Shown here piece by piece: positions 12,957 through 54,236 of a stretch of 64,000 bases of DNA. The stretch is taken from NCBI GenBank assembly GCA_000004985.1, contig GG738891.1, one strand, 5' to 3'. The position numbers were made by a program, and so were the translations under genes. Under the pieces are notes generated by a model, which saw nothing but the letters and a program-made list of their open reading frames with translations, searched no databases and was not told the DNA's origin. Source of the stretch: Naegleria gruberi (lineage: Eukaryota). Position 1 is the first letter of the stretch; the number at the start of each line of letters is the position of its first letter.

Positions 12957-15194
12957 ATGATGATGAACAGAAATAATTCAATTCTTTCCTACAGTTCGGA
13001 ATTTCATCATTATTTCGAATCAAGAGTGGGGAGTCTGCTCACTCTCGATCAAACCTTCCCAGCCAAATATTTAGCAAGTGATCAATATTTCGATGATAAG
13101 CCAACTCATTCCTTGATTACTTTACAAATAATTCCGAATTTAATTAATAATAGTAATGATGATGACGATGATCTGGTTGGTGATCAAAGAGGAGATGAAT
13201 TTACCATCATGATGAAGAATCGAGTGGAAAAGTACATTCAAGCAAGTAGGAAATTTAAGAATAACATTCCCTTGATGAAGTGCTTTGAAGAGGTGACTGA
13301 TGGTGGATCTACATTGACTTTACATTTGTGTTCCTTTCCATTCAATTTGAAAATTCAATCGGAAATGAATAACATGAGGATGATTAAGGAAGTGTTTCAT
13401 AGGAGAGAAGATTTGATAACTTTGGAAAAGTATTTGGAAAGTAACTATTCACTGGAGAATGATTATGGAATGTTGATTGGAATTTTACAGGGTTTGGCAA
13501 AATCTCTATTTGAGTTGCACTTCATTGGTAAATTGAGCCATAATAGTATTATACCAAGGAATGTGGTAATTTCAAGGAAGAATTCAACAGCTCTGATTGG
13601 ATTGCCATCGTTTGGATTGGATGATGTGGTTGGAACGTTGAATGATGAGCATTTGACCTATTTTTCACCTCAAGTTTTGGAAAGATTTGAAAATGGAGAG
13701 AAAACAGTCTTTTCCAATAGTAATGATGTATACATGTTTGGTACATTGATTATTAGGATATTATTGGGCGAGGAGTTTGATGCCAAGTATTTGGACACTG
13801 AACGAATGGATGGGGAATTGAAGGATTTGAAATCAAGAATATTGAAACAGCTCACTAATAATATGCCAATGAGGGAAATCTATGAAAATATAGCAGATAT
13901 GGCATTCAGATGTATTGACAGAAATGAATCTAAACGACCTTCAATAGCTGAAGCGTTTCAACTATTGGAGAAACAAGAACCAATAATCATCCTGCCATCT
14001 TCCGAGTCTGCACTTATCTCAAATTCCAGTTCTGAAACCCCAACTTTTACCGTATCCTCACGTTCATTCAATACCTCAAAATTTTCGCTATTTTCTAACC
14101 TTTTTGGAGTCAAGAAAAAGGACCGAGTGCCATCTTTAAGAAATGATGTGGTAAATGATGTATGTGATGACATATCAACAATTGAAAGTTTACCAATTAT
14201 TGTTCAGTGTGAAGAAAAGAAACTAGATGAAGAAGAAACAAAACCAGTGGAGAATCCAGAAGATTTGGATGAGGAAAAGAAGAAACTCTACATTATTGAT
14301 AAGAGAATTAGTGAGGGAGCTTCTGCTGTTGTGTTCACTCTCAAGAGACCTTCCGAATGTGTCATGAAGAGATACAAGAAAGGTCACGAATCGGATTACA
14401 AGAGAGAAATTAGATGCCTACAAAAACGTCATCAGAATATTGTTACCTTAATAGACAATTATTCATTTAAGGAAGGAGAAAATTTTAATCATGTAATTAT
14501 TATGGAATATTGTGGATATGGAGATTTGTATCGATTGGTATCAAGTAGTGTACAGAAAAGTGCAATCAAACCAATTGTAAGTTTTGTAATGGAAAGTTGT
14601 TTAAATGGAAAACAACAACATTTTAAAATAGAAATTCCTAACAATGGGTATTCAATTATTTGAGGCATTGTGTCACCTCCACTCTAACCAATATGTACAT
14701 TGTGACGTTGTAAGTTTCTTAAACCTTCTTAAACATTCTAATATTCTTTTAAGAAACCTGTAAAGCTTGGCGACTTTGCATTTAGTGTGAGAAATGGAGA
14801 AAGTTCACCAGGATTGACGTTCCACTATGCACCTCCTGAGCTTCATGAAGGAAAACCAGCCATCATTGAATGTGATGTTTACAGTGCTGCTTGTTCTCTA
14901 TTCGAAGTACTTGTAAAGAAGAAGGTTAGTTTGAAAGATAAGGATTTCACACAGGTTTGGGATCAACACAATGCCAATACTAGATTCTATTCCAGGACCA
15001 TGTCTAATCCTCATGCCATTAGATTGTTCAATCTGATGAAAGAATGCTTGGAGCCTGATGCGAAAAATCGATGCTCTTCAAAGAAGGTCCTTTCTGAAAT
15101 GATAGATATTCGAAACAATTTTTGTGCAACCCTTATTCAAAAGATATTTAGAGGATTTAGAGTAAGAAAGAGCCTTAAAAGAAGAATGAATTAA
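12957..15194 (+). CDS. Tandem pseudokinase + atypical kinase domain protein with a C-terminal IQ motif. Three exons: 12957..14576, 14632..14709, 14754..15194. Introns 14577..14631 (55 nt) and 14710..14753 (44 nt).
   Basis: Exon 1 ends ...SAIKPI followed by GTAAGT. The 78-nt middle exon encodes KFLTMGIQLFEALCHLHSNQYVHCDV (kinase subdomain VIb with HCD instead of HRD). Exon 3 begins KPVKLGDFAFS (DFA instead of DFG) and ends with the IQ motif LIQKIFRGFRVRK. The N-terminal domain is kinase-like but lacks catalytic residues (HNSIIPRNVVIS, LPSFGL). All junctions are phase 0 and in frame. Confidence 0.65.
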
Positions 15195-38350: not shown

Positions 38351-38793
38351 TTTTTTTTGAAATTAGAAACTTAAGTTTATGTAGTTTACAATGAAGAATG
38401 GTCCCTGCCATGAAAAATTGGATAGTAATTGCAATTGTTAGTTTTTGGAGTCATCTTAATTTTATTTTAACAAAGAAACAAAAAGACTACAGCACCACAG
38501 GTTCCCAAGTTGTCTCCAACCTCAGTACTGATGTGGCTCGACGATGCTTAACTTCTCAAATCGGACGGGATGAGGTGCATTCATCGTGATATGGCCGTAG
38601 CCATTCAATTACTAGATTTCTGAGTTATAAATCAAAGTTGCAATCAATTTATTTTCGCAACTAAGCTTACCATGCAATTACAAAATAAAGTTGATAGACA
38701 ATTGGTGAAACAGACCTGCCTTTGAAGGATGTAAATCTTTATTGATCATTCCATCAGGTCTCAAAATAATCCTACCCTGGAAAATTAAAAATA

Positions 38794-38866
38794 TGCCGAC
38801 ACCAGGGATCGAACCAGGGACCTTAAGATCTTCAGTCTTACGCTCTCCCAACTGAGCTATGTCGGC
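38794..38866 (-). tRNA. tRNA-Phe (anticodon GAA).
   Basis: Minus-strand sequence GCCGACA-TA-GCTC-AGTTGGGA-GAGC-G-TAAGA-CTGAAGA-TCTTA-AGGTC-CCTGG-TTCGATC-CCTGG-TGTCGGC-A forms a canonical cloverleaf. 7-bp acceptor, D-arm with A14/GG, anticodon loop with U33-GAA-A37, T-loop TTCGATC. It resembles canonical eukaryotic tRNA-Phe. One U·U mismatch in the T-stem (51:63). No encoded CCA. Confidence 0.9.
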
Positions 38867-43299: not shown

Positions 43300-43562
43300 T
43301 TTTTTAATTAAAAATAATAAAATATTTGTGATGATGATAGAAAATTGTTCATCAAAGGACAACCTGTTGTGATCTTTGTTGTAACTTGAATGGAACACAA
43401 TTTTAGATTAATGGATTGTGTTTATTTTGTGGTGGTTGTACTGTGTCGGATGATCGTATTGCAAGACTTTCATTATCTAACTTTTGTCATTTTCAAATAT
43501 GTTGATTATTATTGCAATGTTGAACACAATTTGGATGAGAACAAGGATTAGATTCTTTCTTG

Positions 43563-44831
43563 ATGATGGAAAGAGAAAGAAGTGAACTTGCTATTACAAT
43601 AAAGTTTAAAAAAATGACTTCGGCTCTGCAGCCAGGGAAAATGCTCAGCAACAATAACCAAACATCAAGTTGTTGCCCACCATCTTCTCAGTTGCAGCAT
43701 CAGCAAGGAGGTACAATGACTATCGGAAGAATGTCTTCAGTGGCCAATCATCATAAACGTGGTGGAGCTAATAGCAATGGAAAGAGAGGACTGAACATGA
43801 CTACAACAAGAATAAATCAACAGAAAGAAATTAATGATGGAGAGGGTATGAGAGATGATTCATCTCTCATTAATCAGAAGCTTCAAAATAGTAGTAATGA
43901 TAATAATAATTCGGAAAGGGAGAAGGAAACAATTGTTAATTCAGATCGTTTGAGATTATTGCTTTTTAATCATAAAAGCAGAAATACAATTTATAATAAT
44001 TCTCTAAATAAGCAACAAGTAACTGTTAAGAACTTGGTCCATGTCGGTGTTGAACAACAGCCAGCAAAAAAATATAATCATTCTCAATCAGAAAAATCAG
44101 ACAATTGTTTTGATGAAGGAAATCAAGAGAAAATTAATAGTACTGTGGAAGAAATGAATTCTATTATAAAACCGAAATGGTTAAAATCTATTGTGGATAA
44201 TCAGTGCGATTTGGGTTTTGTGAAGGAAAATGGAAATTGTACAAATATGAATCATTACCCAAAGATAAGGGAAAATAATTCTTTTATGGATACCAAATCA
44301 AAGAAAGTTTCAAAAGAGTCAATTAATGTGAAAAAGAAGAATGGTTCCAATAGGAAAATTGAAAGGACAGAAAAATCCTTTAATAATGTAATGTTGGAGT
44401 TATTCAAAGAAAGGTCAACCGAAATACAACCTCCACAAGATATTCAAAGTAATGACACAATGTTTACAAAGCTAACCAAGTCGTGGAATAGATTCTTATT
44501 CTGGTGGATTAAATGGAAGAGGGATTTCACCACCAACACCATTCACCAATTTTTGAGTTCATATGATCCAGTGATGAGGACATTTGAGTGTGTTTTCATA
44601 TTTTTCGAAACTTTTAGAATACCCTATCCTATTCGATATGCTGTTCATCGAATCAGACACTTTTTATATTTGATATTTCAATTTGTGTGGACATCCACAT
44701 TTCTCTTTGAGGAAAATTCAGAATTTGAACGTGAGCTTTTATCTCACAACAATAGAAGAAACGACTCTCAAATCTACAATGCCGATCCAAGATATTATTA
44801 CGATGATGTAAATTACTATTCACAAAATTAA
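43563..44831 (+). CDS. Hypothetical N/S/K-rich protein.
   Basis: ATG at 43563, 422 aa, mostly low complexity. The C-terminal ~120 aa are more complex (…FTTNTIHQFLSSYDPVMRTFECVFIFFETFRIPYPIRYAVHRIRHF…). Confidence 0.35.
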   Translation: MMERERSELAITIKFKKMTSALQPGKMLSNNNQTSSCCPPSSQLQHQQGGTMTIGRMSSVANHHKRGGANSNGKRGLNMTTTRINQQKEINDGEGMRDDSSLINQKLQNSSNDNNNSEREKETIVNSDRLRLLLFNHKSRNTIYNNSLNKQQVTVKNLVHVGVEQQPAKKYNHSQSEKSDNCFDEGNQEKINSTVEEMNSIIKPKWLKSIVDNQCDLGFVKENGNCTNMNHYPKIRENNSFMDTKSKKVSKESINVKKKNGSNRKIERTEKSFNNVMLELFKERSTEIQPPQDIQSNDTMFTKLTKSWNRFLFWWIKWKRDFTTNTIHQFLSSYDPVMRTFECVFIFFETFRIPYPIRYAVHRIRHFLYLIFQFVWTSTFLFEENSEFERELLSHNNRRNDSQIYNADPRYYYDDVNYYSQN

Positions 44832-45144: not shown

Positions 45145-46173
45145 ATGATAAGCAACAACAAGTTACCATCATCCATATTATTATCATCATCTTCAAATTC
45201 TAATAACAATAACATTTCAACAACACCACGAGGGGAAATGCTTACCATCAATGATTTGCAATCACCTTCTCCGAATAGATCTGGAAGAGTAGCCTCTTCG
45301 GGTTTATTATTGGCAACATCAACTCCTCCTCCCCTCAATATTTCAAAGAAGCTGAATAATTCAACGATGGGTTTAGCAAATAGTAATAATAATAGCAACA
45401 ACAATAGTAGCAACAATAGTGCTCGTGTGAGTCCCCTCGTTGAAAGATTGAATGCAGTTAAGAACACAGCCCAATCATTTAATGGAGGATTAATGGAAGA
45501 TTTAAATTCTAGGAAGGAAGTAGAACAAACCAAAGTGTACGAACTAAGAGATACTGTATCTAGATTGGAGAAGGATTTGACTATGGAAATGAGGAAGAGA
45601 GCAGATGGAGACAAGGTCTTACAAACAATGTGTGATAACAAGATAAATACTATACAGGATTTGATAGAGAAGAAAATGTCTGAAAAGTTTTCTCAAATGC
45701 AACAAACTGTTGATACTCTCACTAAACGTGTTCTAAGTCTGGAAAAGTGTTTGGCTGAGGAGAAGGATTATTCATCCAAGTTTTCAACCTCTATGAAATC
45801 TGGTGTTTTGGGACAATTGGAAGAACTCAGAAATCTAGTTGAGGACGAAAGATTGAATCGATTGGATAGAGAATCTCAAATGATGAGAAAGTTCAATGAT
45901 GAATATTACAAACTCTCTCAAAAGTTAGACACTGAAAAGAAATCTAGGGAAATATTTATGAATTCCACACGTGAGGAAATTGAAAGAATTGAACAAGCTA
46001 AGGCCAAAATTGATCAGGACTTTAGAGCTCAACTCTTTGAAGAAATTGATTCGATTCGTGATGAAATCAAAGTTGAAAAGGAACAACGAGAAATTGTCGA
46101 TGAGCAAATAGTTTCTTCCTTAGATACGATTATCAAGGAAGTCCACGACTCTCTCAGATTAGTTACTAAATAA
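45145..46173 (+). CDS. Coiled-coil protein with an S/N-rich N-terminus.
   Basis: ATG in GAAAATG context. Residues ~120-340 form a continuous heptad-like coiled coil (…LEKDLTMEMRKRADGDKVLQTMCDNKINTIQDLIEKKMSEKFSQMQQTVDTLTKRVLSLEKCL…). Confidence 0.45.
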   Translation: MISNNKLPSSILLSSSSNSNNNNISTTPRGEMLTINDLQSPSPNRSGRVASSGLLLATSTPPPLNISKKLNNSTMGLANSNNNSNNNSSNNSARVSPLVERLNAVKNTAQSFNGGLMEDLNSRKEVEQTKVYELRDTVSRLEKDLTMEMRKRADGDKVLQTMCDNKINTIQDLIEKKMSEKFSQMQQTVDTLTKRVLSLEKCLAEEKDYSSKFSTSMKSGVLGQLEELRNLVEDERLNRLDRESQMMRKFNDEYYKLSQKLDTEKKSREIFMNSTREEIERIEQAKAKIDQDFRAQLFEEIDSIRDEIKVEKEQREIVDEQIVSSLDTIIKEVHDSLRLVTK

Positions 46174-47657: not shown

Positions 47658-47728
47658 TCGGGTGTGGTATAGTGGTAGCATTCCAGACTGTCACTCTGGC
47701 GACCCGGGTTCAATTCCCGGCACTCGAG
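47658..47728 (+). tRNA. tRNA-Asp (anticodon GTC).
   Basis: TCGGGTG-TG-GTAT-AGTGGTA-GCAT-T-CCAGA-CTGTCAC-TCTGG-CGAC-CCGGG-TTCAATT-CCCGG-CACTCGA-G. 7-bp acceptor stem including one G·U, anticodon stem CCAGA/TCTGG, loop CTGTCAC (GTC anticodon), perfect T-stem, discriminator G as expected for tRNA-Asp. D-stem is weak, as is typical of the GUAU-type tRNA-Asp D-stem. High similarity to eukaryotic tRNA-Asp. Confidence 0.8.
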
Positions 47729-48753: not shown

Positions 48754-49641
48754 TCAATATGGAGATGAAATAAATTATTGTTCTACCTATTTCAAGCTCG
48801 AGAAAGGGATTTTTATTGAACATGAAAAGAACACGAATTGAGTATGAGAGATTATGAAGATATTCTGGTTAGGGATGATACAATACTTTAAATATCAAAG
48901 TTTATCCTCTTCAAATAGTAGTGCTGAGCTACTTAGTTGATTTTGTGACCATTAACTGAAATGTTACCATACTTGTAAATAATGACAAACAGAATAATGA
49001 AAGTAACGATACTACATGCAAGGAAACAGAAAAACAATCCCAAACCAATAGCTCCAAACTATTACAATTTCAAATTCTGATCTACTTACTTTTCTTCCTC
49101 TACTGCTATACTTGGTACGATTTCTTGTAATGAAAAAGAGAACAATCCAAATGATTGGCAAACAAAATCCACCCAAGAATAACAAAAAGGCCATGTCATC
49201 ATTCTTGTTCATTTCAGAATTTTCATTTGGCATGAGTATTTCATTTGGTCTATTTTCTGTGAGTGAATGCTGAGTTTTCAATTGCTTACTTACTGGTAAT
49301 TGGTTTGAGAAGGGTAACCATTATTGTGAACGAGTTGATCTTGCATTCGATAAATATATTTGTTTTCTATTCAAATTTGAGTTTCTACCAGTGATTAGTT
49401 TTTTTCTGATAATTGTTTCTCAAACAGAGTGAATCAAACACTTGTAGTCAATTTTGGCCATAAAACAAGTAACCCTTACAGTCAACATATTGGCATTAGA
49501 TTTCAATGTGCTGCTCTTTCTTCCTTTTTACCTTGTGTAATCGTGATACATAATTATTGGAATGTTATTGGAAGGTTACATGAATTCACAGTATTCAAAC
49601 TCTAATTCTGAAGAGATTTGAAGTTGGCGATTTCACAAATA

Positions 49642-49783
49642 GAGACCAATCGAGAGAGTAACACCAATTCTTATACTGATGAGAGTACATGAATCTTGGA
49701 ATAATATCACTCTTAATCATATGAAGAATGATCGAGTGAGCCTCATCGAACACGTCCATTGTTAAAACCGACAAGATATTAGA
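49642..49783 (-). pseudogene. Inverted 142-bp duplicate fragment of the RGS-domain exon of the C2-RGS gene (parent 53791..53932, + strand), ~96.5% identical. It lies in an otherwise non-coding, repeat-containing region.
   Basis: The reverse complement of 53791..53932 aligns gap-free to 49642..49783 with 5 mismatches over 142 nt. It encodes …RFMYSHQYKNWSYSLDWS / …DEAHSIILHMIKSDII (RGS-box C-terminal part). Similarity decays within ~20 nt on both flanks. Confidence 0.6.
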
Positions 49784-50424
49784 GGTCGCATGTCACGCTT
49801 CATAGTATTGTTGTGAACTTTGAAAATTCCCAAACCAATAGCTCCACACTATATCAATAATTCATTAATTAATCATATTCAACATCTTTAACAACTTACC
49901 TCTATCACCAGTCAATAAGGCATTTTGTCTTAACATTTGTTATAGTTTCGAAATTGCAGCAATCATCTGATACGTTTCCATAATGAGCATGTTAATATAT
50001 AGATCAGTACTTAAATGCTGACACTTGGTTAGGATAACAAATAGATTCCTTTTCAATTTTACAAATAAGGGATTGTAAAAATTATGTCATAACACCTATA
50101 GTCTATTATAGCACAGATTTGCTTTCTGACTAGAATGTTTTTGGAAGGTTACATACTTCTCCAGTGCTTTGAACCCTTGCTCTCAGTGTATTCATAATAT
50201 TCTTGTTATTAATTTCAACATTTAGTGAGCTGGTTAAACTTTTCATCAAAGAGGGGTAGAGCAGTACTTATTAATGAATATAGGTCAATACTATTTGTTA
50301 ATATTGAATCAAGAAAAGCATTGAAAATATTGTGGACTAAACCAAACTTTTGTTTACAAAAAATCAATCTGATCCTCTTTACTTATACAAATTGAATTAT
50401 TTGTACTTGTATATTATACATCAA

Positions 50425-51051
50425 TTATTCCTTAGTAAATTTACCATAAATAACTTTGGCATCATTGAAATCATCAACAACAACCTTTGAAGTAACATGC
50501 TTAACACCATCCTTTTCAACTTCTCTATATTTCAATGAACCTCTAATAGAGACAATGACACCCTTCTTGAAGAATTTAGTGGCAACCTTTGCCAAAACTG
50601 GATTGAAGGAAACTACACTGTGGAATGTAGATTGTTCTTCAATATTTTCACCCTTCTTAATTCTCTCCGAGGTAACAACAGTCAAACCAGTAAAAGTTCC
50701 ACCATTTGCAATTTCCTTTATAACAGCATCAGAAGCAAGAGTACCAATAAGATGAACAGAATTGACTGATCCTCTAATTTGGAAAGTTTGTCCTTCTTCT
50801 TGAGAAGGTGCTGGCTTTGAAGATACATTTGTCTTTTTGTATGAAGAATTTGATGATGATGAATAAGAAGGAGTATCACTATTTGATGATGAAGAGGATG
50901 AAGTTGTTGTTGTTGGTTTAACGCTCACTCTTCTGGTAACATCGGAGAGGGTTTGGCTTGTGTGATAGGAACAAGCAGAAGAAGCGAATTGATGGTGGTG
51001 GTGATACAAGGCTGAAGATCTGTTGCCAATAATTGAAATTCTCTTTAACAT
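50425..51051 (-). CDS. Single-stranded DNA-binding protein, mitochondrial type (OB-fold SSB) with an N-terminal presequence.
   Basis: …NSVHLIGTLASDAVIKEIANGGTFTGLTVVTSERIKKGENIEEQSTFHSVVSFNPVLAKVATKFFKKGVIVSIRGSLKYREVEKDGVKHVTSKVVVDDF… matches the SSB pattern (N.V.L.G.L…, H.V..F…LA…LKKG..V.V.G.L). The N-terminal ~80 aa are R/S/T-rich and lack acidic residues. ATG in AAAAAAATG context. Confidence 0.7.
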   Translation of the reverse strand: MLKRISIIGNRSSALYHHHHQFASSACSYHTSQTLSDVTRRVSVKPTTTTSSSSSSNSDTPSYSSSSNSSYKKTNVSSKPAPSQEEGQTFQIRGSVNSVHLIGTLASDAVIKEIANGGTFTGLTVVTSERIKKGENIEEQSTFHSVVSFNPVLAKVATKFFKKGVIVSIRGSLKYREVEKDGVKHVTSKVVVDDFNDAKVIYGKFTKE

Positions 51052-52656: not shown

Positions 52657-54236
52657 ATGGTGAATGGAATCTTTAATAGTGGCAGAGCATCTGTCGATTT
52701 TAATTACCGTCCTGGTATGCATCGGTTTGCAGATCCTTCAATGACCAGTGACAGAATAATGCTAGGAAGAAGTCCAGGAGCTGGTTTCGGAGGCATGTAT
52801 TTAATGTCAGGTACATCAGAAATTTCTGCTTTAACAACACCTTCACAATCCACAAAAACATCTTTTGATTCGATTGGAAAAATTTGGATTAATTTAATTG
52901 AAGCAAGAAAACTTTTGGCAGCTGACGTGAATGGAACCTCAGATCCTGTAAGTTTTTGTGTATTTCATATTTAATTTTACAAATTTGATATAGTATGCTG
53001 TTATATTGTGTAGGTGTTATGAATTTTAAATTGAGTTTAATAATAATGAAAGTTGGTGATATTCAAAAAAAGTCACGTGTCATGTACCATAATTTAGATC
53101 CAATTTGGAAGGAAGAATTTTATTTTGATATTTGTGAAACGAATGAAAGTTTAAAGATTTATATTATGGATAGTGATACAATTGGTTCAGATGATTTTTT
53201 AGGATTGGTTGAAGTGCCAATCAAGTCAATTGTTGAATCAAAAAATGATTTAATAGACAAGTGGTATAAATTGAAATCTACTTCAGTAAGTTTACAATTT
53301 TTCAAATCAAATGAAAATTAACTTTCTCAGTTGACTACTCGAGTAACAGGTGAACTTCATTTGCAACTCAAATTTTTACCAAACAATGCACGTCAAGCCA
53401 TAATGTCACCAATCACGCCAATTCCAACTTATTCGGATACTGATTTATCCAGTGAACGATCCACCGATTATATGGAACAAGTAGATGATCTGGGAGCCAA
53501 TTTTTCAATGAATACTGAAAAAATGTTGAGTGACATTCATTCAGCTCGTTATTTACATTCATTTATGAAGGAGCAATTTTGTGAGGAATGTTTGGAATTC
53601 ATTTATGCAGTGGAACAATTTAGGAAAATTTATAAAAATCGACAAGTGGATCCAAAAGAATTGAAGAAGGTTGCATTTGTAGTTTATGAGAGATTTTTAC
53701 AATTTGGAAGTCCACAGGAGGTTGCAATTCCGTTCATGATTAGAGTAGAGCTACAGGACTTTTTTGAGAACAAATTGGAAGATGAGACGTCTAATATATT
53801 GTCGGTTTTAACAATTGACGTGTTCGATGAGGCTCACTCGATCATTCTTCACATGATTAAGAGTGACATTATTCCAAGATTCATGTACTCTCATCAGTAT
53901 AAGAATTGGAGTTACTCTCTCGATTGGTCTCTCCAATTCCGAATGATGGAAGAAAAGAGGAGAAAGCAAAGTTTGACCTATCTCATTGAAATGATGGATG
54001 AGAAGAGTTTGCAATTTTTAAAGAAGAGAATTATTGAGAGACAAAAGAAAAAGAATTCCTCCAATAGTACTTCTTGTAATTCTGCATTTGATGATTGTGA
54101 TTCGGATGAGGAAGGAATTTTGGAAGAATTGAATTTGAGTGATTTCAAATCAACTAAATTTTCCTCAACCCAACAAGCTCAACAGGGCCAACAACAACCA
54201 ACAATTGATATGGGAGAGTTTGTTTTAACCTTGTAA
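52657..54236 (+). CDS. C2-domain + RGS-domain protein, multi-exon. Last intron 53286..53330 (45 nt, GTAAGT…CTCAG). An upstream junction within 52950..53040 is unresolved.
   Basis: C2 N-part IWINLIEARKLLAADVNGTSDP, immediately followed by GTAAGT (52950). C2 continuation …KLSLIIMKVGDIQKKSRVMYHNLDPIWKEEFYFDI…IYIMDSDTIGSDDFLG…WYKLKSTS, then GTAAGT. Next exon LTTRVTGELHLQLKFLPNN…, then RGS box …RYLHSFMKEQFCEECLEFIYAVEQFRKI…VAFVVYERFLQFGSPQEV…DEAHSIILHMIKSDIIPRFMYS. ATG at 52657 (AAAAAAATG). Confidence 0.65.

Follow-up and report, generated by a model that had tools for sequence, protein, structure and literature searches.

A small annotated gene, a candidate box C/D snoRNA and a probable scar of templated repair downstream of the mtSSB gene of Naegleria gruberi

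The interval of ~1.65 kb (48754-50424) that adjoins the mtSSB gene in the nuclear genome of Naegleria gruberi raises the question of whether it is a decaying, largely empty piece of chromosome or an ordinary locus. A sequence-only reading had described it as a gene-poor island with no convincing ORF, with dispersed short repeats and pseudogene debris, and had proposed a decayed duplicated segment, or an uncharacterised repeat or non-coding locus. What we find there is an annotated small gene, a snoRNA candidate and a copied patchwork of ~300 bp. As the gene, the probable guide RNA and the patchwork lie in the interval, we favour, with a probability of about 0.6, the reading that this is an ordinary locus with two small genes (one of them the candidate snoRNA) and the scar of a locally templated repair. 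All copy searches covered the window, by which we mean the whole 64-kb stretch of DNA that was analysed, out of a genome of ~41 Mb.

The annotated gene and its protein family

The term "gene-poor" is wrong because an annotated gene of four exons covers 48933-49936, and a coding sequence is present as well: the spliced minus-strand exons (49936-49900, 49339-49294, 49249-49090 and 49058-48933) translate exactly to NAEGRDRAFT_71542 (XP_002673392.1, EFC40648.1; "predicted protein [Naegleria gruberi]"), which is 97% identical to a model that was spliced by hand. Its accession is consecutive with that of the mtSSB protein (EFC40649.1), and the naming of that neighbour was borne out (Pfam SSB, 5.6e-18). 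The elements of the two genes are as follows.

50425-51051, minus strand: mtSSB gene, 100% identical to N. gruberi NAEGRDRAFT_51649; upstream same-strand neighbour of NAEGRDRAFT_71542
49900-49936, minus strand: annotated exon 1 (MLRQNALLTGDR), with a GTAAGT donor after it; taken from the model
49340-49899, minus strand: intron 1 as annotated, 560 nt; holds D1b, the RGS fragment and D2a (see below)
49294-49339, minus strand: annotated exon 2 (DQLVHNNGYPSQTNYQ); tentative
49250-49293, minus strand: intron 2, 44 nt; taken from the annotation
49090-49249, minus strand: exon 3, with an NKNDD motif and the first transmembrane helix (TM1, MAFLLFLGGFCLPIIWIVLFFITRNRTKYSSRGRK); homologues and alignment
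49059-49089, minus strand: intron 3, 31 nt, GTAAGT...TAG, phase 0; frame conservation and shared position
48933-49058, minus strand: exon 4 with the stop codon and the second helix (TM2, FGAIGLGLFFCFLACSIVTFIILFVIIYKYGNISVNGHKIN); model equals the database protein, TM2 conserved in homologues

The product has two hydrophobic helices, with a hydropathy of TM2 above 2, and belongs to an uncharacterised family of about 14 proteins (query included, E ≤ 1e-3), as judged by significant similarity over both helices and the linker between them. Homologues were found in N. gruberi itself (3.3e-41), in N. lovaniensis (3.3e-13) and among environmental eukaryotes; beyond these two Naegleria proteins, a further 10 lie at E < 1e-3. 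Most members have a P/Q/Y-rich N-terminus, which is followed by a "KKNDD" motif and the two helices; G55 and W62 do not vary across the alignment, and conservation crosses the junction of exons 3 and 4. The N. gruberi paralogue contains two tandem modules of this kind. When family members were scanned against Pfam, none reached the threshold for any family, and two gave faint matches to NEDD4_Bsd2 (E 0.013 and 0.079). The layout, though in architecture only, recalls the PY-motif adaptors of the NDFIP/Bsd2 type, where a P/Q/Y-rich N-terminus is likewise followed by closely spaced helices; however, the KKNDD family has two helices rather than three, and the NAEGRDRAFT_71542 product does not have the long P/Q/Y-rich N-terminus.

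Based on these comparisons, exons 3 and 4 are well supported; the evidence for exons 1 and 2 and for the 560-nt intron 1 is the annotation. Intron 3 is supported because its removal is needed to hold the family-conserved TM2 in frame, and the N. lovaniensis paralogue has an intron at the same position; with 31 nt it is shorter than all other confident introns in the window (45-177 nt). An early idea that the DNA came from an organism with a ciliate genetic code or with tiny introns was given up when N. gruberi was recognised as the source. Intron 1 far exceeds the other introns of the window in length, and the HMMER alignment of the product to the N. gruberi paralogue begins at residue 21, in low-complexity sequence. 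Intron 2 could alternatively have 37 nt and end in CACAG, which also keeps the frame open; the resulting exon 2 (MVTLLKPIT...) was not preferred to the annotated one, the data favouring neither. The ATG at 49233, within exon 3, is a possible true start codon, and the stretch annotated as intron 1 could then be 5' flank instead.

A snoRNA candidate between the two genes

The proposal of a non-coding locus may hold on a basis that had been overlooked, namely a box C/D snoRNA candidate that lies ~170 nt past the stop codon of mtSSB.

50173-50257, minus strand: box C/D snoRNA candidate of the U29/SNORD29/snR71 type (Rfam, boxes, stem, guide)

Read on the minus strand, 50257-50173 is probably an unannotated box C/D snoRNA that guides rRNA methylation. 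It has a C box UGAUGA at 50248-50243 (preceded by U, not by the R of RUGAUGA) and a D box CUGA at 50186-50183, and both are enclosed by a terminal stem, ACCCCUCUU with GAGCAAGGGU, that has 4+5 bp and a 3-nt bulge in the MFE fold. The flank duplex, at -7.2 kcal/mol, ranks third among 57 C..D pairs in the window, which contains three C/D-plus-stem candidates this good versus 0.35 expected from shuffles. The Rfam model SNORD29 (RF00070) matches over its full length with 25.5 bits (E 0.0087-0.048, a value that would be about 1 if scaled to the whole window), short of the gathering score of 48, and a second family of the same clan (CL00051) also matches. Nothing in the interval passes an Rfam gathering threshold; the only match to other families, Plastid-clpP at E 0.6, was ignored. 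A search of the interval for further C/D candidates with a relaxed C box gave one weak plus-strand match, which was dropped, so that 50257-50173 stands alone in the interval at this quality.

The antisense element of a C/D snoRNA pairs with rRNA over ~10 nt or more and places the nucleotide to be modified opposite the fifth position upstream of box D or D'. In the candidate, the guide core CCAGCUCAC (50233-50225) forms nine contiguous Watson-Crick pairs with GUGAGCUGG, found at positions 31-39 of the LSU fragment that served as target, a genuinely eukaryotic sequence (Rfam LSU_rRNA_eukarya, 3.1e-31) other than N. gruberi's own rRNA. The guide/LSU duplex reaches -21 kcal/mol with a 2-nt bulge and is equalled by one in 1000 shuffled guides; its register agrees with the Rfam consensus, with a degenerate D' box and nine contiguous pairs only. 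GUGAGCUGG is a universally conserved LSU sequence; human U29 and yeast snR71 direct the methylation of its A, and yeast snR69 that of the C two nucleotides further on. The paired A, position 34 of the LSU fragment and 24 nt after the A-loop G, corresponds to yeast Am2946.

The candidate thus resembles SNORD29/snR71 in its C box followed by ...UAAC(C/U)AGCUCACU..., its D box and terminal stem, and in a guide that would bring the U29/snR71-methylated A opposite the fifth nucleotide before the family's D' position. It differs in that it scores about half of the gathering threshold, exceeds the 65-nt model in length (77-85 nt, including a 13-nt insertion) and has a degenerate D' box, AAAU or CUAA; reading CUAA as D' would shift the target by two nucleotides, to the C at the snR69 site of yeast.

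A chance match, with 49937-50424 being only the 3' region of mtSSB and the promoter of NAEGRDRAFT_71542, is a serious alternative, although less likely than not. Most sub-threshold Rfam matches are due to chance, the fold as a whole does not exceed those of shuffled sequences in stability (z = +1.18), the D' and C' boxes are poor, and a scan of the JGI metagenomes for the snoRNA core returned 0 matches. Against this stands a combination of features: boxes C and D are both exact, a terminal stem is present, and the guide has a conserved site of known methylation in register. The rate of 0.35 C/D-plus-stem candidates per window by chance scales to ~0.01 for the 1.65-kb interval, and the figure of 1 in 1000 for the guide duplex points in the same direction, these tests not being fully independent of the Rfam match. 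A literature search found no N. gruberi snoRNA catalogue.

Repeats and the RGS fragment

Both short repeats were reproduced by alignment, far above chance, and so was the inverted RGS fragment. The copies and their sources are the following.

49033-49068, minus strand: D1a, spanning the junction of intron 3 and exon 4 (10 nt of intron, 26 nt of exon; ATTGTAATAG/TTTGGAGCTATTGGTTTGGGATTGTT); source copy
49823-49858, minus strand: D1b, 36-nt copy of D1a within intron 1; 31/36 identical
50133-50176, minus strand: D2b, starting in the last 4 nt of the 3' terminal stem of the snoRNA candidate and containing AAG/GTATGT (alignment); presumed source copy
49560-49604, minus strand: D2a, ~45-nt copy of D2b within intron 1, with an extra 11-nt tandem slip (TTATTGGAAKG, 49554-49578)
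53782-53932, plus strand: RGS source segment, inside the intact RGS-domain ORF 53331-54236, 4 kb away
49641-49791, minus strand: RGS fragment, sense orientation, with sharp ends and 7 substitutions (4 synonymous, 3 non-synonymous)

D1 is the repeat that had been reported as a 30-nt direct repeat at 49036 and 49824. The copies are 790 bp apart, and their 24-nt cores (49039-49062 and 49829-49852) are the same except for one degenerate position; the core occurs twice in the window, where 100 shuffles give an expectation of 0.00. The second pair, reported at 49562 and 50143, is real as well, with 21 of 22 bases identical between 49560-49581 and 50133-50154, the coordinate 50143 having been 10 nt off; it too occurs twice in the window, the expectation from shuffles being 0.00, with the copies 573 bp apart. 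Its continuation, described as ~70% similar, was recovered: with two 1-nt gaps the alignment extends to ~45 nt and scores 43, versus a shuffle mean of 19.7 and maximum of 35. Upstream, an extension of D2 aligns at the shuffle level (8.0 against 8.03), and a second snoRNA copy upstream of D2a was dropped, its alignment being no better than shuffles.

The repeats are not dispersed within the 64 kb, where D1 and D2 each have exactly two copies, both of them local, which would simply represent a source and its copy. No coding similarity indicative of a dispersed repeat or transposable element was found in the window. The interval holds no strong inverted repeat (the best has 30 nt at 70%) and, as its only tandem repeat, the 11-nt slip of 2.3 copies inside D2a.

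The RGS fragment is an ungapped, inverted copy of 151 bp with 95.4% identity to its source (7 mismatches, E 2.7e-65), and the source ORF carries an RGS domain (PF00615, 2.4e-14). For this piece "pseudogene debris" is apt: it covers only the last 34 of the 117 positions of the Pfam RGS model (83-116), falls short of a complete domain (E 0.0089; 16.8 bits where the cut-off is 23.9) and is bounded by stop codons. At the protein level, the region has no similarity to the window besides RGS. A homology search with the fragment's peptide, limited by its word index, gave no candidates, and a scan of the JGI metagenomes for the RGS core gave 0 matches. Pseudo-ORFs on the minus strand of 50130-50367 have neither a Pfam match nor similarity to anything within the window, and were dropped as possible RGS or other debris.

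In its nature as an internal piece of an ORF, copied nearby without the start codon or the rest of the domain and followed by stops, the RGS fragment is like known gene-fragment pseudogenes and segmental micro-duplications. It is unlike them in being much shorter than typical duplicated pseudogenes, and in its location inside the annotated intron of another gene, beside two other micro-copies.

Origin and possible effects of the patchwork

D1b, the RGS fragment and D2a are packed within 299 bp (49560-49858), with spacers of 31 nt (49792-49822) and 36 nt (49605-49640) for which no template was identified. The three copies derive from a functional exon junction, an intact ORF and the flank of the snoRNA candidate, at distances of 0.79, 4 and 0.57 kb, respectively. 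Several short copies from the neighbourhood, clustered at one site, fit locally templated insertions rather than a dispersed family or a tandem duplication in decay. We suggest that one or a few events of break repair or replication restart occurred in intron 1, or the 5' flank, of the small gene, in which an extending DNA end would have used several local templates, copying a short piece of each until it was rejoined: 36 nt of the intron-3/exon-4 junction, 151 bp of RGS coding sequence (inverted) and ~45 nt of the snoRNA-candidate flank. Such a process belongs to the class of templated insertions or "filler DNA", as produced by MMBIR/FoSTeS or polymerase-theta end joining. The patches share with the products of these pathways, and of template-switching SDSA, their shortness (36-151 nt), templates within a few kb and in either orientation, packing at one site, sharp edges and unrelated short spacers; unlike those products, the patchwork is known from sequence alone, without demonstrable microhomologies at its junctions. 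A single origin is what we infer, but divergence is unequal among the patches (RGS 4.6%, D1 14%, D2 core 4.5%, extended D2 ~20%), so that more than one event is possible. We know of no description of a templated-insertion patchwork in Naegleria.

The proposed decayed duplicated segment survives as three sharp-edged patches (36, 151 and ~45 nt, 86-95% identical), not as the tandem duplication of a whole unit. The latter would be a head-to-tail duplication of a D2-to-D1 unit containing the two-helix gene, whose upstream copy (50176-49823) has decayed to the islands D2b and D1b, and we regard it as unlikely. A tandem duplication would account for the minus-strand order D2b-D1b-(RGS)-D2a-D1a, and the two tandem modules of the N. 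gruberi paralogue indicate that such duplications do occur in the KKNDD family. Yet a whole duplicated unit should show comparable identity throughout, and the 263 and 480 nt between the islands show similarity not beyond chance (local score 23.0 versus a shuffle mean of 23.7 ± 3.7), a pattern that uniform decay cannot produce. The region 49940-50420 contains no remnant of a TM1 exon nor any sequence of the gene product or its two Naegleria homologues, the distances between repeat starts are unequal (296 versus 513 nt), and D1b stops abruptly 26 nt into the exon. With the DNA between the patches unalignable and a second TM1 exon missing, a decayed duplication of the whole unit is not supported.

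It is extremely unlikely that the RGS piece and the short repeats are assembly artefacts from chimeric reads or mis-joins. Chimeric clones can yield short inverted copies near their source, and nothing direct speaks for such an origin here; 7 differences in 151 bp without gaps indicate a diverged paralogous sequence rather than a misplaced read, and the annotated protein, reproduced exactly, spans the region. In addition, an independent metagenome contig (L003, found via P0017) is collinear with the adjacent ~1.9 kb (52342-50407) at 96.9% identity, ending 18 nt beyond the mtSSB stop. A strain of roughly 97% identity is represented in ENA run ERR1078381 (assembly ERZ929261). A second contig (L002, via P0016) showed no synteny, and the N. 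lovaniensis contig (L001) holds a paralogue of the small gene, the orthologous locus being absent from that contig.

The copies might also have a function, for which we see little chance. D1b could act as a decoy or alternative 3' splice site in regulated unproductive splicing, the RGS fragment could yield RNA antisense to the RGS gene if transcription of the plus-strand neighbour ran through it, and D2 could be a shared cis-element. The AG of D1b (49850-49849) lies 51 nt past the exon-1 donor and so creates a canonical-looking short intron, GTAAGT...TAG, nearer to the usual 45-177 nt than the annotated 560 nt; D1 and D2 have stayed more alike in their cores (19 nt exact and 21/22, respectively) than at their edges, and four of the seven RGS substitutions are synonymous. 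However, seven substitutions, of which half fell on the parental lineage under constraint, are too few for a synonymous excess to mean anything; splicing of exon 1 to the D1b acceptor gives a product of 30 aa, then a stop, that has no homologue; and D2 is shared with nothing else in the window. Still less probable is a wider scheme, in which one complex template-switching event would have given intron 1 both a decoy 3' splice site and the RGS fragment in sense orientation, and these would now affect expression (by unproductive splicing, or by antisense or dsRNA with the RGS gene 4 kb off), while the U29/snR71 guide would survive alongside in Heterolobosea as an independently placed gene, its 3' flank being one of the templates. 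The patches are most likely neutral.

Under the reading that we favour, an ordinary locus with a repair scar, most of the supposed island is unremarkable, consisting of an already annotated small gene and ordinary non-coding DNA. The clustered micro-copies would represent a clear case, found in nature, of insertion from local templates, and they suggest how a repair scar can leave a gene with a canonical-looking splice acceptor in its interior; the presence of such a patchwork, with its acceptor, within NAEGRDRAFT_71542 flags exons 1 and 2 of the current model as doubtful. The candidate, if it proves to be a genuine snoRNA, would be one that the annotation of N. gruberi lacks, and would imply that a guide for a conserved LSU methylation beside the peptidyl-transferase centre has been kept in Heterolobosea.

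Layout of the interval 48754-50424

The window is AT-rich (~33% GC) and crowded with long ORFs connected by short GTAAGT...AG introns, a setting in which the interval had been read as an unusual, gene-poor island. It is neither empty nor out of the ordinary, as the reference annotation places one gene (NAEGRDRAFT_71542) there, and the 3' region, the annotated gene and the 488-nt spacer with a snoRNA candidate that make it up are each unremarkable.

Components of the interval
48754-48932: convergent 3' region between two genes (179 nt)
48933-49936 (-): annotated gene NAEGRDRAFT_71542
49936-49900 (-): exon 1 of NAEGRDRAFT_71542
49339-49294 (-): exon 2 of NAEGRDRAFT_71542
49249-49090 (-): exon 3 of NAEGRDRAFT_71542
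49058-48933 (-): exon 4 of NAEGRDRAFT_71542
49937-50424: stretch from NAEGRDRAFT_71542 to the mtSSB stop codon (488 nt), holding the snoRNA candidate and D2b, one copy of the second short repeat

The adjoining mtSSB ORF (50425-51051) is 100% identical to the N. gruberi protein NAEGRDRAFT_51649, and the accession numbers of the two neighbours, EFC40648.1 (NAEGRDRAFT_71542) and EFC40649.1 (NAEGRDRAFT_51649), are consecutive, which identifies the window as N. gruberi nuclear DNA. A 1,961-bp metagenome contig (L003; ENA ERZ929261, run ERR1078381) matches window positions 52342-50407, spanning mtSSB and its upstream region, at 96.9% identity, so that a close Naegleria strain is present in sample ERR1078381. 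Two tRNA genes and one 5S rRNA gene were found in the window at Rfam gathering thresholds (47658-47728 (+), 38794-38866 (-) and 38484-38602 (-)); the small spliced gene flanking the interval has the one at 47658-47728, a tRNA gene, immediately upstream. An SF-assemblin/beta-giardin gene at 45145-46173 (+) (Pfam, 4e-33) is consistent with a flagellate-capable organism.

NAEGRDRAFT_71542 and its family

Translation of the four minus-strand exons gives exactly the annotated protein (P0001), which has two strongly hydrophobic helices; a protein spliced by hand from the interval had a single database match (97% identity), 'predicted protein [Naegleria gruberi]'. Introns 1, 2 and 3 measure 560, 44 and 31 nt, and the last (49059-49089, minus strand) is below all other confident introns of the window (45-177 nt).

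An exhaustive HMMER search identified 12 relatives of P0001 in all at E < 1e-3: the two-module N. gruberi paralogue NAEGRDRAFT_82289 (P0002; 3.3e-41), N. lovaniensis P0003 (3.3e-13) and ten more, at least three of which are environmental-assembly entries. Pfam returned an above-threshold family for none of the family members. In the family alignment G55 and W62 are invariant, and conservation runs unbroken across the exon-3/exon-4 junction (...TRNRTKYSSRGRK/FGAIGLGLFF..., slash at the junction), a homology that requires the 31-nt intron. Because the junction is conserved and the intron position is common to the N. lovaniensis paralogue P0003 (where the intron is ~75 nt), exons 3 and 4 and the intron between them are predictions we consider well supported. 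Exons 1 and 2, comprising 28 residues without clear homology and reliant on the 560-nt intron, are regarded as model-only, and the true start could be the ATG at 49233.

The paralogue P0002 (323 aa) carries two complete tandem modules, both of them having a P/Q/Y-rich region, the sequence KKKNDD and a pair of TM helices. Its module 1 is like P0003 and its module 2 like P0001, and it may represent two neighbouring genes merged by the gene model.

A patchwork of short copies and its proposed origin

Both short repeats described in the sequence-only reading are real, although one coordinate of the second (D2) had been placed 10 nt off. The first (D1) occupies 49033-49068 (D1a) and 49823-49858 (D1b), with 31/36 positions identical; D2 occupies 49560-49581 (D2a) and 50133-50154 (D2b), with 21/22 identical, and reaches ~45 nt if two single-base gaps are allowed (score 43 vs 19.7 +/- 3.0 for shuffles, maximum 35). 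The inverted RGS fragment was likewise recovered, as an ungapped 151-bp match of 49641-49791 to 53932-53782 (95.4% identity, E 2.7e-65) that spans just the last 34 of 117 RGS model positions. Its seven differences from the source are four synonymous and three non-synonymous, a split that is uninformative because one of the two lineages is a constrained gene. A 45-nt GTAAGT...CAG intron (53286-53330 (+)) links the ORF of the RGS gene to an upstream exon.

D1a consists of the final 10 nt of intron 3 and the initial 26 nt of exon 4, thus containing the 3' splice site and the FGAIGLGL codons; D1b is a copy of it within annotated intron 1. The AG of D1b sits 51 nt past the exon-1 donor, giving a canonical-looking intron, and splicing to it would yield a product that terminates after 30 residues. 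The sole result of Tandem Repeats Finder on the interval was an 11-nt, 2.3-copy slip in D2a, where the unit TTATTGGAAKG is duplicated in tandem at 49554-49578; the duplication is absent from D2b and is a small replication slip, after or during copying of D2a.

On the minus strand 31 nt separate D1b from the RGS fragment downstream of it, and a further 36 nt separate the fragment from D2a, so that three derived pieces are grouped within 49560-49858.

Sources of the three pieces
D1b: functional exon junction, 790 bp distant
RGS fragment: intact RGS ORF (Pfam RGS, 2.4e-14), opposite strand, 4 kb distant
D2a: presumably D2b, 573 bp distant

The proposal of a decayed duplicated segment holds in that duplicated pieces (D1, D2 and the RGS fragment) are present, but not as the decay of one duplicated unit. 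Had a D2-to-D1 unit been duplicated in tandem, the two inter-island segments (263 and 480 nt) should match about as well as the islands do (86-95%), yet their alignment is no better than that of shuffles (23.0 vs 23.7 +/- 3.7). Further evidence against such a duplication is the lack of an upstream extension of D2 (8.0 vs 8.03), the edge of D1b, which breaks off abruptly 26 nt into the exon, and the missing second TM1 exon, of which no trace was found in the interval. Nor is there evidence of a dispersed repeat family within the window, as the 24-nt core of D1 occurs exactly twice in 64 kb, as does D2 (0.00 expected in either case), and the rest of the interval gave no DNA- or protein-level matches to the window.

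We favour templated-insertion repair as the best explanation of the patchwork, a mechanism inferred from short, sharp-edged copies of several nearby templates at one site; known products of such repair are likewise clusters of this kind. Short stretches would have been copied from several nearby templates and gathered at one site. A search of the window found no template for the spacers between the pieces. Apparent divergence is unequal among the three patches, so more than one insertion event may have taken place.

A box C/D snoRNA candidate

The suggestion of a non-coding locus survives as a possible, predicted box C/D snoRNA at 50257-50173 (-), the last 4 nt of whose 3' stem are overlapped by the start of D2b. 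When the interval was scanned with Rfam under permissive settings, sub-threshold matches included, one match below threshold stood out: a full-length SNORD29 (U29) at 50254-50178 (-), scoring 25.5 bits where the gathering score is 48 (E 0.048 with 2.9 kb searched, 0.0087 with 0.5 kb); a second family of the SNORD29 clan also matches. The C (UGAUGA) and D (CUGA) boxes are exact, the D' box is degenerate, and the post-C-box stretch UUUAACCAGCUCACU agrees with the family consensus UAACUAGCUCACU. The flanks pair as a 4+5-bp terminal stem; only three C..D pairs with so stable a flank duplex occur in the whole window, whereas Markov shuffles predict 0.35. The remaining two, UGAUGA...CUGA pairs with even stronger flanking stems (-11.8 and -7.7 kcal/mol), fall within long ORFs: 43676-43765 (-) in ORF 43560-44831 and 13198-13312 (+) in ORF 12957-14663.

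The guide was tested on a genuine eukaryotic LSU fragment from another source than N. gruberi (contig L004, 1-125; Rfam LSU_rRNA_eukarya, 3.1e-31). It forms nine contiguous Watson-Crick pairs, no more, with GUGAGCUGG (L004 31-39), and the duplex with a 2-nt bulge (-21 kcal/mol) was matched by 1 of 1000 shuffled guides. The paired A, 24 nt past the A-loop G, corresponds to yeast 25S Am2946, whose guide is snR71 (U29 in human), and the C two positions further on corresponds to Cm2948 (guide snR69). L004 (IMGVR_UViG_3300009564_000091) is filed as viral, its ~120 nt of eukaryotic LSU rRNA being followed by unrelated AT-rich, apparently coding DNA; contig chimerism or insertion of an element into rDNA may account for this. 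No relative of the candidate was found in JGI metagenomes, and no catalogue of Naegleria snoRNAs turned up in the literature searched. Judged from its sequence features, we put the odds that the candidate is a real snoRNA at somewhat better than even.

Overall the locus is an ordinary one with two minor new items: this U29/snR71-like snoRNA candidate and the patchwork of probable locally templated insertions, which makes the 5' end of the NAEGRDRAFT_71542 gene model, as it now stands, doubtful.
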